15,106 nt of DNA from Candidatus Iainarchaeum sp. (GTDB lineage Archaea > B1Sed10-29 > WALL01), in contig JAGGYF010000010.1 in NCBI GenBank assembly GCA_021162685.1, forward strand, positions 1 through 15,106. Direction: 5' to 3'. How positions within the stretch are numbered: position 1 is the first letter of the stretch; every line of letters begins with the position of its first letter. The notes under the pieces were generated by a model, which worked only from the letters and a program-made list of their open reading frames with translations, made no database searches and had not been told where the DNA came from. The translations under genes and the position numbers were made by a program. Shown in pieces: positions 139-3,029 of the stretch.

Positions 139-229
139 CGGTAGAGCGACTGCCTCGTAAATGAGGAACCTCCAGCGGGTTCCTCATCATGGAAGCAGTA
201 GGTCGAGGGTTCAAATCCCTCCCGAGGCT
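124..229 (+). tRNA. tRNA-Thr(CGT), intron at canonical 37/38 position, no encoded CCA
   Basis: Acceptor GCCTCGG/CCGAGGC plus U73, D-stem GCTC/GAGC, anticodon stem ACTGC/GCAGT, anticodon CGT at 156-158, T-arm GAGGG-TTCAAAT-CCCTC. Confidence 0.95.
160..193 (+). other. 34-nt tRNA intron with relaxed bulge-helix-bulge
   Basis: Intron stem ATGAGGAACC (161-170)/GGTTCCTCAT (178-187). The central helix CTCG/CATG pairs at only 2 of 4 positions. Removal restores a 7-nt anticodon loop. Confidence 0.85.
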
Positions 230-283
230 TCTATCCTATGTTAGTAGTCGTAATAAGTTTTGTAAAAGGAGAGCAGTAGTAAG

Positions 284-1111
284 TCACACTTTAATTTTTC
301 TTAATCCCCTTCGCATTTTAGCATAAGTCATCCACTGTCGAGGTGAAATTTTCATCAAAGGAGTTACAATTTTTATATCTACTTCATATGTGTTACCAAA
401 TTTTTTGGTTAGTTTTTCCTTCAACAGCTCTTGAACGGGTGTACCAAACTTGGGGTCTATGTGCTTACGCCCTATCTTAAAGGAATATCGCGCATTACCT
501 TTTGGGTTTTCTCTACTGATATAGTCTACTATCCTATTAGTCATGTACTCATTTCGTTCTTCAATGGTCTTTTTATTAGTCATGGCTGACACTTGCTCTT
601 CTAAGTTTGCTTCTTTCAGAGTCCCATAAAGGGCATCTTCTAGAACCTCATGAAGTGCAGGATGATCTACAGGGATAAAGGGTACACCAGTTTCTTTGCT
701 ATGGATGAACTGAGCATTTGCGGTTTCTTTAAGGAGAGATGTCAATTCCTCTGTAGTCATACTGGAAGGATATTCAGCAAAATGCGCATTATACTTCCAT
801 CGCTTAAAGTGTCTTAATAATGCTTTTTCAGAAGCCACACGCCACCCTAATGATCTCTCATGCATCCTCTTCATCTTTTTTAAATCGTGCAAAATTGAAT
901 CAATTGAATCCTTTTCTTTAACTGGAAATTTAAAATGTTCTCTTAGCAGATTTGTTAATTTAGATAAACTTGGAAGAATCTCTCTCTGCTTATCAATATC
1001 CTTTTTTTGAAGGGTTTGGGCTATCCCGAGAAGCCGGAGTATTCCTGCATGGACATCACTCATGCCGTACACATGAACTTCGGGGATAACTTCAACAACA
1101 ATCTTCTTCAT
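284..1111 (-). CDS. Hypothetical 275-aa protein, possible TIKI/TraB/EreA/ChaN-superfamily fold
   Basis: Long ORF with a TATA-like TATATAAAAA about 25 nt upstream. Ordered motifs HVYGMSDVH, FAE, IPVD, ERNEYM, IGRKH. Confidence 0.7.
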   Translation of the reverse strand: MKKIVVEVIPEVHVYGMSDVHAGILRLLGIAQTLQKKDIDKQREILPSLSKLTNLLREHFKFPVKEKDSIDSILHDLKKMKRMHERSLGWRVASEKALLRHFKRWKYNAHFAEYPSSMTTEELTSLLKETANAQFIHSKETGVPFIPVDHPALHEVLEDALYGTLKEANLEEQVSAMTNKKTIEERNEYMTNRIVDYISRENPKGNARYSFKIGRKHIDPKFGTPVQELLKEKLTKKFGNTYEVDIKIVTPLMKISPRQWMTYAKMRRGLRKIKV

Positions 1112-1227
1112 TGTTTAAGTTATTGCAACTGTTTTTTATATATGTGCGCCTCATTTCCGCGGAAATTCCTAAGAAATGACTTGTGTCTGTCGGTTTTCAG
1201 CCACAGCTCAAAGCCGTATGACTTTCT

Positions 1228-1240
1228 CCTCCCGAGGCTT
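1228..1240 (+). repeat. tRNA-Thr 3'-end copy 1 (att-like)
   Basis: CCTCCCGAGGCTT is identical to 218-230. Confidence 0.85.
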
Positions 1241-1320
1241 TATGTTTTCAAGTGTAGAGCTCCAACTCTGAGACAGTGCGTTTCTCTTGAAATTTAACTT
1301 GTTGATTTCTTTACAGAGCG

Positions 1321-1363
1321 ATAAGTTTAAATACTTATACGTACGTGAAAATACGAAAGGTGA
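1321..1363 (+). promoter_or_regulatory. Promoter/operator and RBS of the RHH-RelE pair
   Basis: TATA box TTTAAATA (1326-1333) lies within the inverted repeat ATAAGT-N6-ACTTAT (1321-1338). SD AGGTGA at 1358-1363. Confidence 0.65.
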
Positions 1364-1367
1364 GTTG

Positions 1368-1598
1368 ATGGCTTTGAAGCAAATCAGTGTTACGATGCCA
1401 ATGAACTTGTTCAAGGCGTCTAAAGAGTATTCTCAGGAGCATGGGTACAAGAATATACAGGAATTTATCTTGGATGTGATACGGAAGAAGATTATGGCAA
1501 AAAGAATTGCTAGATATGAAAAGATAGAGGCACAGATAGACAGGGAAGCCAGGGCCATGAGCAAGAAGGAAGCGATTGCTTATTTGGAAGGTCTTTAA
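1368..1598 (+). CDS. Ribbon-helix-helix antitoxin (76 aa; start revised to ATG 1368)
   Basis: MALKQISVTMP...GYKNIQEFILDVIRKK fits the RHH pattern. SD upstream; TAAATG junction with the toxin. Confidence 0.8.
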   Translation: MALKQISVTMPMNLFKASKEYSQEHGYKNIQEFILDVIRKKIMAKRIARYEKIEAQIDREARAMSKKEAIAYLEGL

Positions 1599-1853
1599 AT
1601 GCAGTACAAGATCAAGTTCAGCAAAGAATTCGAGAAATCAATGAAAAAACTGAAGAAAAGGAACCCCTCTCTCTTCAAGCAAATACAAAAAAAGCTGATT
1701 GAAATCATTAAACACCCAGAACACTATAAACCACTGAAGCATGACTTGGCAGGATACCGTAGAGTACATTTCGGAAGCTTTGTACTCGTCTACACAATAA
1801 GAAAAAACACTGTCAAGATAATTTCAGTAGACCACCACGACAAAGCATACTAG
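1599..1853 (+). CDS. RelE/ParE-superfamily toxin (RelE/StbE/YafQ-like)
   Basis: 84 aa, basic. YKIKFSKEFEKSMKKL...PEHYKPLKHDLAGYRRVHFGSFVLVY...HHDKAY. Confidence 0.88.
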   Translation: MQYKIKFSKEFEKSMKKLKKRNPSLFKQIQKKLIEIIKHPEHYKPLKHDLAGYRRVHFGSFVLVYTIRKNTVKIISVDHHDKAY

Positions 1854-1861
1854 CAAACAGA

Positions 1862-1879
1862 TAAGAGTAGCTACTCTTA
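1862..1879. repeat. Perfect 18-bp palindrome
   Basis: TAAGAGTAGCTACTCTTA, between the toxin stop and the next tRNA-end repeat. Confidence 0.85.
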
Positions 1880-1912
1880 GCCATCTCCTGCCCCAAGTGC
1901 AGAACTCGTGCT

Positions 1913-1933
1913 CCTCCCGAGGCTTCTATCCTA
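1913..1933 (+). repeat. tRNA-Thr 3'-end copy 2 including downstream flank (att-like)
   Basis: CCTCCCGAGGCTTCTATCCTA is identical to 218-238. Confidence 0.92.
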
Positions 1934-1952
1934 CGTGCAGGTCTGCCCAAAC

Positions 1953-2381
1953 TCAACTTAGTAGTTCCCCTATCTTTTTGATGAATTCTCTTGCTAAATC
2001 AATCACCTCTTCTGCATCTTCTTTTGTCTCTGTTTTCTCCAAACCATAAAAAACTTCATGCCTCTCCTGGCGAGCATGGCGAATCAGAGGAATAAACTTT
2101 GCATCTAATTTCCCTGTCTTTACGTACTTTTCATTTATGTATTCAACAACACAATAGTGACTCTTTTCAGAGTATCCATCTCTAAACAACAATGCCCGCG
2201 AAGCATGAAAAATCGCGGCATATGCCAGTAGTATGGTTGCGCTTGGGATACCTGCGTCCTCAGAAATCTCAGCGTCAATGAGTCTTTCTCTTGCAATCTC
2301 AATGGCTCTTATTGCCTTCTCTTTATCAGGTTTCTCTCTACGCAGTAGCCTTTTTTCAATACACTCATCTAGTTTACTCAC
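1953..2381 (-). CDS. HEPN-domain protein (MNT-HEPN system)
   Basis: AYAAIFHASRALL...SEKSH...RQERHEVFY; GTGA overlap with the upstream MNT gene. Confidence 0.88.
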   Translation of the reverse strand: MSKLDECIEKRLLRREKPDKEKAIRAIEIARERLIDAEISEDAGIPSATILLAYAAIFHASRALLFRDGYSEKSHYCVVEYINEKYVKTGKLDAKFIPLIRHARQERHEVFYGLEKTETKEDAEEVIDLAREFIKKIGELLS

Positions 2382-2923
2382 AAAACCACCGGTAATTCTC
2401 CATACAAAGCTATTCCGTCGATAACAACTCTCTCATAGAATGGTTTATCTTCTTTTGCTTTCTTCAGCCATTCCTTCATAGTATAGAACAAAATGTTTAC
2501 CTCTTTCCCCAGTTTAGATGCATATTTTTGTACATTTTTTGGTTTCTCCTTCCCAATAACAAGAATGTCAATATCACTGTTCTCATCATCCTCACCACGT
2601 GCCACCCCACCATAAAGTGTGATAGACTGTGCTTTACATTGTTTAGTTAGTAGAGGGATGATTCCTGAGTTCCATATCTCAAACAGGGATTTTGTTATCT
2701 TCATATGCTTGAATGTTGGATTTGACATGTTTGCCTTAAAGATTGCCAAGTTGCCTCTTACACTACGTACGATTAACCCCTTCTCTACGAGAAAATCTGT
2801 CACAATTTTGGCTGTGCTTGGGCTTACTTTCGCTTTCTTTGCTATTTCTCTTAAGTAGTACTTGGAGTAGGGGTTTTCTAGAAACAGCTTTAAAACCTTC
2901 ACTCCTGCATAATTTTCGAACAT
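2378..2923 (-). CDS. wHTH-fused minimal nucleotidyltransferase (MNT) antitoxin (start revised to ATG 2923)
   Basis: N-terminal wHTH (YLREIAKKAKVSPSTA) and YGGVARGEDDENSDIDIL (G[GS]...DxD). SD GGTGAT just upstream of ATG 2923. Confidence 0.9.
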   Translation of the reverse strand: MFENYAGVKVLKLFLENPYSKYYLREIAKKAKVSPSTAKIVTDFLVEKGLIVRSVRGNLAIFKANMSNPTFKHMKITKSLFEIWNSGIIPLLTKQCKAQSITLYGGVARGEDDENSDIDILVIGKEKPKNVQKYASKLGKEVNILFYTMKEWLKKAKEDKPFYERVVIDGIALYGELPVVL

Positions 2924-2932
2924 AAGATCACC

Positions 2933-2972
2933 AAACAATCGTTCGATATATAGAACAATTGTTCTATATAAA
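2933..2972 (-). promoter_or_regulatory. MNT-HEPN promoter with palindromic operator
   Basis: The perfect 24-bp palindrome TATATAGAACAATTGTTCTATATA (2947-2970) overlaps a minus-strand TTTATATA. A second imperfect site AAACAATCGTTC is at 2933-2944. Confidence 0.75.
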
Positions 2973-2989
2973 CCTTTGTAAAACGCTTC

Positions 2990-3029
2990 TTCAAATCCCT
3001 CCCGAGGCTTGGGAGGCCTTGTGCCTCCC
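2990..3029 (+). repeat. tRNA-Thr 3'-end copy 3 plus GC hairpin
   Basis: TTCAAATCCCTCCCGAGGCTT (2990-3010) is identical to 210-230 and is followed by GGGAGGC-CTTGT-GCCTCCC (3011-3029). Confidence 0.92.

Follow-up and report, generated by a model that had tools for sequence, protein, structure and literature searches.

Integron cassette arrays consist of ~1-kb units lying between recombination-site repeats, and chromosomal arrays of this type are rich in toxin-antitoxin (TA) cassettes. Casposons target tRNA genes and produce target duplications of 14–15 bp, and SSV-type integrases split their own gene upon integration. As described in the available part of PMC5704250, cis-mobilizable elements (CIMEs) keep attL and attR, have lost their integration genes, and arise by deletion and by tandem accretion at the 3′ end of a tRNA gene. 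For archaeal elements with tyrosine recombinases, both tandem arrays and integrase loss after integration are described in the accessible portions of PMC6563490 and PMC8371274. Here we analyze a 15,106-nt stretch of DNA from Candidatus Iainarchaeum sp. (the window; contig JAGGYF010000010.1, positions 1–15,106, assembly GCA_021162685.1), in which three short units follow one another behind a tRNA-Thr(CGU) gene. We conclude that these units are probably a tandem array of small, non-autonomous, CIME-like remnants of integrative elements that targeted this tRNA.

The array is anchored by the tRNA-Thr(CGU) gene at 124–229 (+ strand), which matches the full-length Rfam model RF00005 with 62.9 bits and was not called by ARAGORN in default mode. 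The anticodon, read from the sequence, is CGT, and the tRNA was therefore assigned as Thr(CGU); an archaeal-type intron of ~34–36 nt, at about 160–194, follows the anticodon loop. A pattern search of the window identified exact + strand copies of a 13-nt core, CCTCCCGAGGCTT, at 218–230, 1228–1240, 1913–1925, and 2998–3010, with distances of 1010, 685, and 1085 nt between successive cores, precisely as given in the original prediction, which was made from the sequence of the window. The tRNA-Thr core is also written CCTCCCGAGGCT. At 10163 there is a fifth copy, which departs from the core at two positions. In shuffled sequences the mean expected count was 0.15, and five or more matches occurred in 0 of 200 shuffles.

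Copy 1 (218–230), which is attL-like, consists of the final 12 nt of the Rfam-called tRNA plus 1 nt, in agreement with the earlier proposal that the repeats derive from the tRNA 3′ end. Copies 2 (1228–1240) and 3 (1913–1925) form the junctions between units 1 and 2 and between units 2 and 3, respectively, and copy 4 has a long, 21-nt form (2990–3010, + strand) that extends from the T-loop to one base beyond the tRNA end. The array thus has an intact tRNA at one end and direct 3′-end repeats bounding every unit, as expected of tandem tRNA-targeted integrative elements or CIMEs. The original prediction recognized the four cores but missed three features of their surroundings: the outermost cores are identical over 21 nt, from the T-loop on (210–230 and 2990–3010); the 11 nt to the right of copy 1, CTATCCTATGT, also lie to the right of copy 3; and copies 2 and 3 are both preceded by CT. 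This flank pattern would be expected if related elements had inserted serially into the tRNA end, as previously suggested, with each junction representing the right end of one element joined to the left end of the next.

Each unit holds one operon, and the orientations in units 1, 2, and 3 are −, +, and −. Unit 1 (231–1227) contains a 275-aa ORFan (284–1111, −). Unit 2 (1241–1912, +) encodes a ribbon-helix-helix (RHH) antitoxin (1368–1598, +), which matches the NikR N-terminal domain weakly (E 5e-4), and a RelE/ParE toxin (1599–1853, +; PF05016, 51.8 bits, cut-off 23). Unit 3 (1926–2989, −) encodes a HEPN protein (1953–2381, −; PF05168, 60.8 bits, cut-off 22) and a protein with a winged helix-turn-helix and a nucleotidyltransferase (MNT) domain (2378–2923/2938, −; PF01909, 35.3 bits, cut-off 21; also PF18765), and this HEPN-MNT pair is matched by PADLOC PDC-M05A/B. 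TATA-like boxes, read by eye, lie 24–48 nt upstream of each of the three operons, and a perfect 24-nt palindrome (2947–2970) occupies the MNT promoter region. As the type II TA families PF05016, PF05168, and PF01909, as well as PF02452 in a further unit described below, all score above curated cut-offs, with the RHH antitoxin weakly supported, two of the three units are, by sequence, TA modules. Family profile searches found no recombinase domain in any of the three units or elsewhere in the window. The earlier description of the contents, their mixed orientation, and the lack of a recombinase was thus borne out.

The 275-aa ORFan has no family match in Pfam, NCBIfam, or PADLOC and no homologue in a word search of 5.8 billion proteins; a single 44-residue fragment match was found among 1.84 billion representatives. 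The matching protein (P0001) is 91 aa long, matches approximately the first 43–44 residues of the ORFan (window 983–1111) with 98% identity, beyond which the two differ. Our genome does not encode the tail of P0001, which may stem from a structurally variant unit 1 in a different assembly. An AlphaFold model of the ORFan has low confidence (pLDDT 51). We considered whether the ORFan is a hidden recombinase and rejected this, though not rigorously, given the lack of a family match, Atlas scores below 0.9, and the near-absence of homologues, since a recombinase serving elements in several genomes should have relatives.

The ends of the units recur elsewhere. Unit 1 has what we call type-b ends, with a conserved right end (1172–1227) and a TATA-like box, and unit 2 has type-a ends, with a left end at 1241–1292, a TATA box at ~1326, and a right end at 1889–1912; the right end of unit 3 is TTTGTAAAACGCTTC. 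A second array lies on another contig of the same genome, behind tRNA-Thr(UGU) (C12:15571–19470). Its core is exact at the tRNA, has one mismatch 1.3 kb on, and is degenerate 1.5 kb further, and its cargo consists of a RelE-like pair, an AbiEii pair, and a HEPN-MNT pair, beyond which lies an ordinary TauE gene. Between the two arrays, the DNA at the junctions is 78% (1228–1292 versus C12:15656–15719), 81% (1889–1953 versus C12:16945–17013), and 91% identical (1172–1236, the right end of unit 1, versus C12:18442–18506), whereas comparable cargo proteins are 25%, 34%, and 37% identical. The ends are therefore conserved and the cargo is not. Moreover, each type of left end goes with its own type of right end: window unit 2 and unit A of the C12 array are of type a, and window unit 1, unit B of the C12 array, and units u1 and u4 of an array in a second genome, G002, are of type b. 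The RelE-like TA unit on C12 is 82.7% identical over 712 nt to a unit (L065) of an archaeal metagenome-assembled genome (MAG) from another genus, and the homology stops at the core. Additionally, a region of unit 1 containing the palindrome ATTTCCGCGGAAAT (1153–1166) is 92% identical to two sites in G002, and 2970–3003, at the right end of unit 3, is 85% identical to 9267–9300.

G002, one of 31 genomes of the class in our collection, belongs to the same family as our genome but to another genus. Behind its own tRNA-Thr(CGU), seven cores spread over 11 kb form an array homologous to that of the window. Unit lengths there run from 154 nt to 5.3 kb. The cargo includes an isochorismatase, a TFIIB-like protein, and unknown ORFs, and TA cargo is therefore not a rule. 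The 5.3-kb unit (L016:4786–10100), bounded by the same core, encodes an intact 389-aa tyrosine recombinase (4861–6030) that matches PF00589 with E 5e-24; its best NCBIfam match is archaeal XerA, at 131 bits, below the curated cut-off. The gene starts 75 nt from the core. A 72-nt stretch comprising core and flank is 87.5% identical between G002 and our genome, and the promoter motif of the G002 integrase recurs in the left end of the small type-b units. Thus, a related autonomous tyrosine-integrase element using the same att core is present in G002; our genome has none. As a separate observation, an inverted core copy, AGCCTCGGRAGC, directly precedes the integrase start codon, downstream of a TATA box, at L016 4849–4860, L038 ~11470, and L040 ~5461, and may serve in autoregulation or as a further site of recombination.

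Integrases of this type are also found in decay. Relatives occur in 9 of the 31 class genomes, though not in our genome, and the copy in a third genus is 85% identical. The copy in G020 contains three stops, G004 has a partial copy, and G008 retains a 41-aa fragment. The relatives include two N-terminal stubs; one of these belongs to an eroded additional copy of the element in G002, which keeps 21 integrase codons. Proteins of any kind that match PF00589 are encoded by only 10 of the 31 genomes, and the class therefore lacks a universal Xer. The G002 unit with its integrase, the shared end motif, and the eroded integrases together suggest that the structure matches the CIME pattern of accretion plus decay. 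The original prediction had held that homologous units turning out to be eroded ends of large integrase-carrying elements would speak against it. This is partly what we found, as the 5.3-kb unit, the shared type-b motif, and the eroded integrases would fit such derivation, yet the window units themselves contain no integrase remnant and the outermost ends of the integrase unit differ from theirs.

Could a recombinase encoded elsewhere in the genome act on the window units? The genome (45 contigs, 1.11 Mb; marker-gene completeness 98.4%) gave no match to Phage_integrase (PF00589), SSV-type integrase (PF16795), Resolvase, Cas1 (PF01867), or Y1 transposase, although control genomes gave matches for each family. 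The stand-alone XerA-like or other tyrosine recombinase, or HUH nuclease, that the original prediction proposed to look for elsewhere in the genome was therefore not found, and any movement of the units would, as the original prediction also held, depend on a recombinase supplied in trans. Readings based on casposons, SSV-type elements, serine recombinases, or HUH enzymes were rejected, as the enzymes are absent from the genome. Elements integrated at archaeal tRNA genes become trapped once the integrase is inactivated, and in this the locus resembles SSV-type elements and the "gene capture" in archaeal chromosomes (PMC7253208); unlike SSV-type elements, however, it has no PF16795 match and no integrase halves flanking the units, and the G002 integrase is intact while integrated, 75 nt from its core.

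For the window units, we infer the following course of events. A Xer-like tyrosine integrase of related autonomous elements would recombine the att site of an element with the last ~13, and sometimes ~21, bases of the tRNA. Each insertion would restore the tRNA and add a second copy of its end, and re-use of the site would stack the elements, with the newest adjoining the tRNA. The units would then lose the integrase and nearly everything else, leaving one self-promoted operon per unit, mostly TA pairs. TA genes may be the least easily lost, because their loss would kill the cell. As our genome has no integrase, the units would currently be fossils, and excision, reshuffling, or re-integration would occur only if an incoming element supplied the enzyme. 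As far as the available text of PMC5704250 goes, CIMEs and ICESt1-type streptococcal islands are likewise att-bounded, integrase-less, stacked at a tRNA 3′ end, and mobilizable only by the integrase of another element. The window array, known from sequence alone, differs from ICESt1-type CIMEs in its small-genome archaeal host, its one-operon units of 0.7–1.1 kb, the lack of an integrase anywhere in the genome, and the lack of conjugation genes. It shares with the archaeal tandem elements the re-use of one site, the targeting of tRNA genes, and integrase loss. In the accessible portions of PMC6563490 and PMC8371274, however, the smallest element named is 2.6 kb and still encodes its integrase, whereas the window units are smaller, integrase-free, and in two of three cases purely TA.

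Several observations weigh against this course of events. No integrase of the G002 type, or fragment of one, was detected in our genome (best tblastn E 0.18), and the window array is therefore linked to the G002 enzyme only through homology of array architecture and flanks. The G002 integrase unit has outermost ends unlike both the type-a and the type-b ends. The window units lack terminal inverted repeats, as 77, 228, and 300 of 300 shuffles reached their respective scores. The RHH-RelE operon (1321–1849) recurs in G002 (81% identity) and G004 (76%) without being bounded by cores, indicating that TA operons also move by other routes, and a tRNA lies nearby at only 1 of the 13 loci with MNT homologues that were examined in other genomes. 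Public reads (four runs of one study, labeled hydrothermal vent metagenome) yielded contigs of depth 3–7 that contain no joints at cores, circles, empty sites, or strain polymorphism, data too thin to decide either way. The RHH-RelE homologue on contig C1 of G002 (L002) is flanked by three GGCCCAGAAGCGGCT-like copies (1243–1258, 1445–1458, and 2029–2045); we rejected these as tRNA-end repeats, as they are local and match no tRNA end in G002.

An alternative to remnants, which we regard as unlikely, is the one put forward in the original prediction: the units would be live cassettes of ~0.6–1.3 kb that each combine conserved ends and an att site with one operon, that are excised as circles and inserted singly at tRNA ends by an integrase acting in trans, and that form arrays functionally analogous to those of integrons. 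Equally doubtful is the broader form of this idea, in which small-genome archaea harbor a class of integrative cassettes of this size whose ends are conserved, whose att site is a tRNA end, and whose cargo is a single TA or defense operon; visiting integrases would shuffle them between tRNA 3′ ends and between genera. Such a class would be the archaeal equivalent of integron cassette arrays, with tRNA genes in the role of attC, and a co-varying hairpin, described below, would then belong to a recombination site that can be retargeted. Conserved ends with variable cargo, the stable pairing of left and right end types, and the presence of the same TA cargo and right end, bounded by cores, in two genera all favor live cassettes, as do the four window cores, all of which are exact, and a continuum of sizes within the same arrays, from cargo-less elements of 84–190 nt to integrase elements of 5.3 kb. 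As the ends are conserved and paired and homology ends at the core, the units could have traveled as mini-circles instead of being cut down in place.

However, our genome has no integrase to drive such cassettes, and the ends, only 78–91% identical, show no trace of recent copying. Terminal inverted repeats are absent from the window units, and the junction-type 14-mer is found in 1 of the 31 class genomes, namely our own. The read data contain neither circles nor empty sites, but are inadequate for showing them. A scan of the genome collection for the type-b end motif matched eight stretches, three from one archaeal MAG and five bacterial; the bacterial matches are close to the chance number that we estimate for a 19-mer with three two-fold positions in 596 Gb. 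The hallmarks of integrons are also absent. The array resembles integron arrays in its ~1-kb units between site repeats, its TA cargo, and a tyrosine recombinase as the likely agent. Unlike in integrons, there is no adjacent IntI, attI, or common promoter; the repeat is a tRNA-Thr 3′ end, not a folded attC, with no significant inverted repeats between the unit ends; and, where integron cassettes are mostly promoterless and in a single orientation, the window operons are oriented −, +, − behind TATA-like boxes read by eye. For these reasons the distinct "integron-like system" of the original prediction could not be upheld.

Remnants of integrase-dependent elements also have to be weighed against transposition-like insertion. 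The repeats are nearly constant in length, 12–13 nt, at four different tRNAs, namely Thr(CGU), Thr(UGU), a tRNA-Ser, and the tRNA at C12:10806, despite unrelated sequences, and this is a further point against an integrase mechanism, as they can be read as target-site duplications. In this scenario, which we consider improbable, an unrecognized enzyme that targets tRNA ends would make staggered cuts, in the manner of a casposase, and duplicate ~12–13 nt (or ~20 nt) of target. Such a mechanism would also fit the ~20-nt terminal inverted repeats of the type-b units of G002, whose score was reached in 0 of 300 shuffles, and a family of mini-elements (hairpin ... TTTTGTAAAAAGTTTC) found at several tRNAs, where the repeats match the target and the hairpin stem changes along with the tRNA end.

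Hairpins of this family were read from the sequence behind core copy 4 and elsewhere. The hairpin GGGAGGC-CTTGT-GCCTCCC occupies 3011–3030 (+), and the type recurs 3′ of tRNA-Thr(GGU), of two tRNA-Leu genes, and of the core copy at 10155, each time with the stem matched to the tRNA end. Hairpins with a 7-bp stem and the constant loop CTTGT lie in the window at 3011–3030, 9224–9246, and 10176–10193 and elsewhere in the genome at C12:7067–7087 and C20:2463–2483. The stems differ in a compensatory manner between Thr and Leu genes (GGGAGGC/GCCTCCC, CAGGGGC/GCCCCTG, and AGGGGGC/GCCCCCT), and the sequence of the 5′ arm is that of the final tRNA bases in reverse complement. The stretch 2990–3029 is 93% identical to C12:7047–7087. 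Together, copy 4 and the hairpin at 3011–3030 read CCTCCC-GAGGCTT-GGGAGG, a 6-bp inverted repeat with a 7-nt spacer. This 6-7-6 repeat has the form of a tyrosine-recombinase core site, and an integrase may bind there.

A miniature array within the window contains cargo-less elements. It lies at 9110–9501 (+) and consists of an intron-containing tRNA-Leu(CAA) gene (9110–9223, +; called by ARAGORN with introns allowed, Rfam 43.8 bits) followed by elements of 88 and 190 nt, both of which end in 20–27-nt copies of the tRNA-Leu 3′ end (9285–9311 and 9475–9501). Adjoining it is a TA unit (9502–10193, +) with a Leu-type copy on its left and a Thr-type copy plus hairpin on its right. This unit encodes a VapB/DUF7557-like antitoxin (9596–9823) and a PemK/MazF toxin (9801–10130; PF02452, 37.6 bits, cut-off 23.1). 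The Thr-type 3′-end copy, at 10155–10175, has two mismatches, and the site is 89% identical to 2990–3025. Cargo-less repeat families of 60–190 nt, such as CCAAATTACATATGG..GTGGGATACAAGATCCCAC and GGGGTGTGGAWTCCGAGG..GCAAAGCGAAGCAAGGGAGTA, lie next to different tRNA genes, at window 9312–9501, C25:11672–11800, C15:21412–21472, and from C12:4917 on.

Duplications at the 5′ end of tRNA genes likewise fit a transposition-like process. The window opens with a duplicate (1–41, +) of the tRNA-Thr promoter region and the first 15 nt of the tRNA that is identical to 98–138 (41 nt, 100%), and the two copies are separated by a 56-nt GC-hairpin insert (42–97). We surveyed 38 tRNA genes of the genome (35 Rfam rows above cut-off plus three from ARAGORN, with weak rows excluded and one examined separately). 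Copies of the first 13 nt lie 65–198 nt upstream at 7 of the 38 tRNAs, versus 2 in controls. Such upstream duplications, of 13–17 nt and often with part of the promoter region, were observed at window 1–138, C15:21397, C16:1170, C20:9091, C26:66493, C12:4629, and C12:22473. A small GC-hairpin insert lies between the duplicated 5′ ends, and several inserts form recurring families resembling miniature inverted-repeat transposable elements (for example, GCAGCGTCCCTAGGGG...CTGGCTACCCTGGGAAGCCCACCCC, which is also found reversed at tRNA 3′ ends).

Against transposition, the genome encodes no Cas1, HUH, serine, or tyrosine recombinase. The repeats vary in length between 12 and 41 nt and, beyond the tRNA portion, are imperfect, in the manner of att identity blocks; the inverted repeats of G002 lie 6–10 nt inside the direct repeats, not at the tips; and an integrase-bearing unit sits on the very same core. 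The comparison with casposons (PMC4779613) leads to a similar result. Tandem insertion at a tRNA 3′ end and short direct repeats of similar size are shared features, but the array differs in having no Cas1 in the genome, no polymerase, repeats of 12 to 41 nt, and window units without terminal inverted repeats.

Decayed integrase-dependent elements are also better supported than a reading in which no mobile element is involved and the repeats arose by chance, mis-assembly, or local duplication or gene conversion of tRNA-end fragments. Some features of the assembly would fit the latter. The genome is metagenome-derived, the window contig begins inside the 41-nt repeat, and many contigs break in tRNA fragments or their repeats. 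Contigs built from the public reads span core 3, and junction 3 is the only one spanned by separately built contigs. A contig end, C24:37058–37098, equals the 41 nt that open the window, suggesting that these two contigs probably join; C11, C14, C34, C7, and C22 also end in tRNA fragments or their repeats. Nevertheless, we consider it very improbable that no element was involved, as the repeat count was reached in 0 of 200 shuffles and homologous arrays with the same core and flanks lie on another contig and in another genus.

The genome-wide survey further argues against such a non-mobile origin. In the scan that the original prediction called for, 3′-end copies were found behind other tRNAs: copies of the last 12 nt occur on the same strand within 12 kb downstream of 6 of the 38 tRNAs, 12 copies in all, versus one copy in three control placements. 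Two of the 12 belong to a neighboring Thr gene and its array. In favor of decayed integrative elements, TA genes also cluster behind tRNAs throughout the genome. Two further single TA units are bounded by 12–13-nt copies of other tRNA ends, one at C12:10806 and one at a tRNA-Ser on C15. In this genome, 5 of 6 ParE/RelE matches lie within 1.5 kb downstream of a tRNA, and 3 of 5 HEPN matches adjoin tRNA-end copies. Scanning metagenomes with the tRNA 3′ half was uninformative, as it yielded five contigs, all carrying tRNA-Thr(UGU) of other organisms with a single core, and a search of viral contigs with the G002 integrase found no relative.

Two observations concern other parts of the window. A glutamate dehydrogenase gene (4805–6020, −) is split, with ~55 N-terminal residues encoded at 5853–6020 and the rest at 4805–5779 in another frame, reflecting either a frameshift or a sequencing error near 5800–5850. 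An AT-rich stretch of 45 nt occurs at 6355–6399 and 10999–11043 with 87% identity, upstream of glutaredoxin/PLD-like genes and of a TrmB-like regulator, respectively, and is possibly a shared promoter or operator.

Our literature search, which covered accessible text, found no published description of this structure. The array does not amount to a new type of genetic system, as it matches both the accretion and CIME decay known from bacteria and the tandem integrated elements of archaea. What sets it apart is the small size of the units, the concentration of TA modules at tRNA ends, and a host genome that lacks a recombinase. The pairing of one relative's integrase with a 13-nt core and short conserved ends offers a test system for the mobilization in trans of integrase-less mini-elements by archaeal integrases. 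If our interpretation is correct, tRNA genes in reduced archaeal genomes would be collecting points where elements arrive, decay, and leave behind only addictive TA or defense operons; such sites account for most of the RelE-type and HEPN modules of this 1.1-Mb genome. Such accretion would provide a route by which very small genomes could gain and keep defense-type genes without a recombinase of their own.

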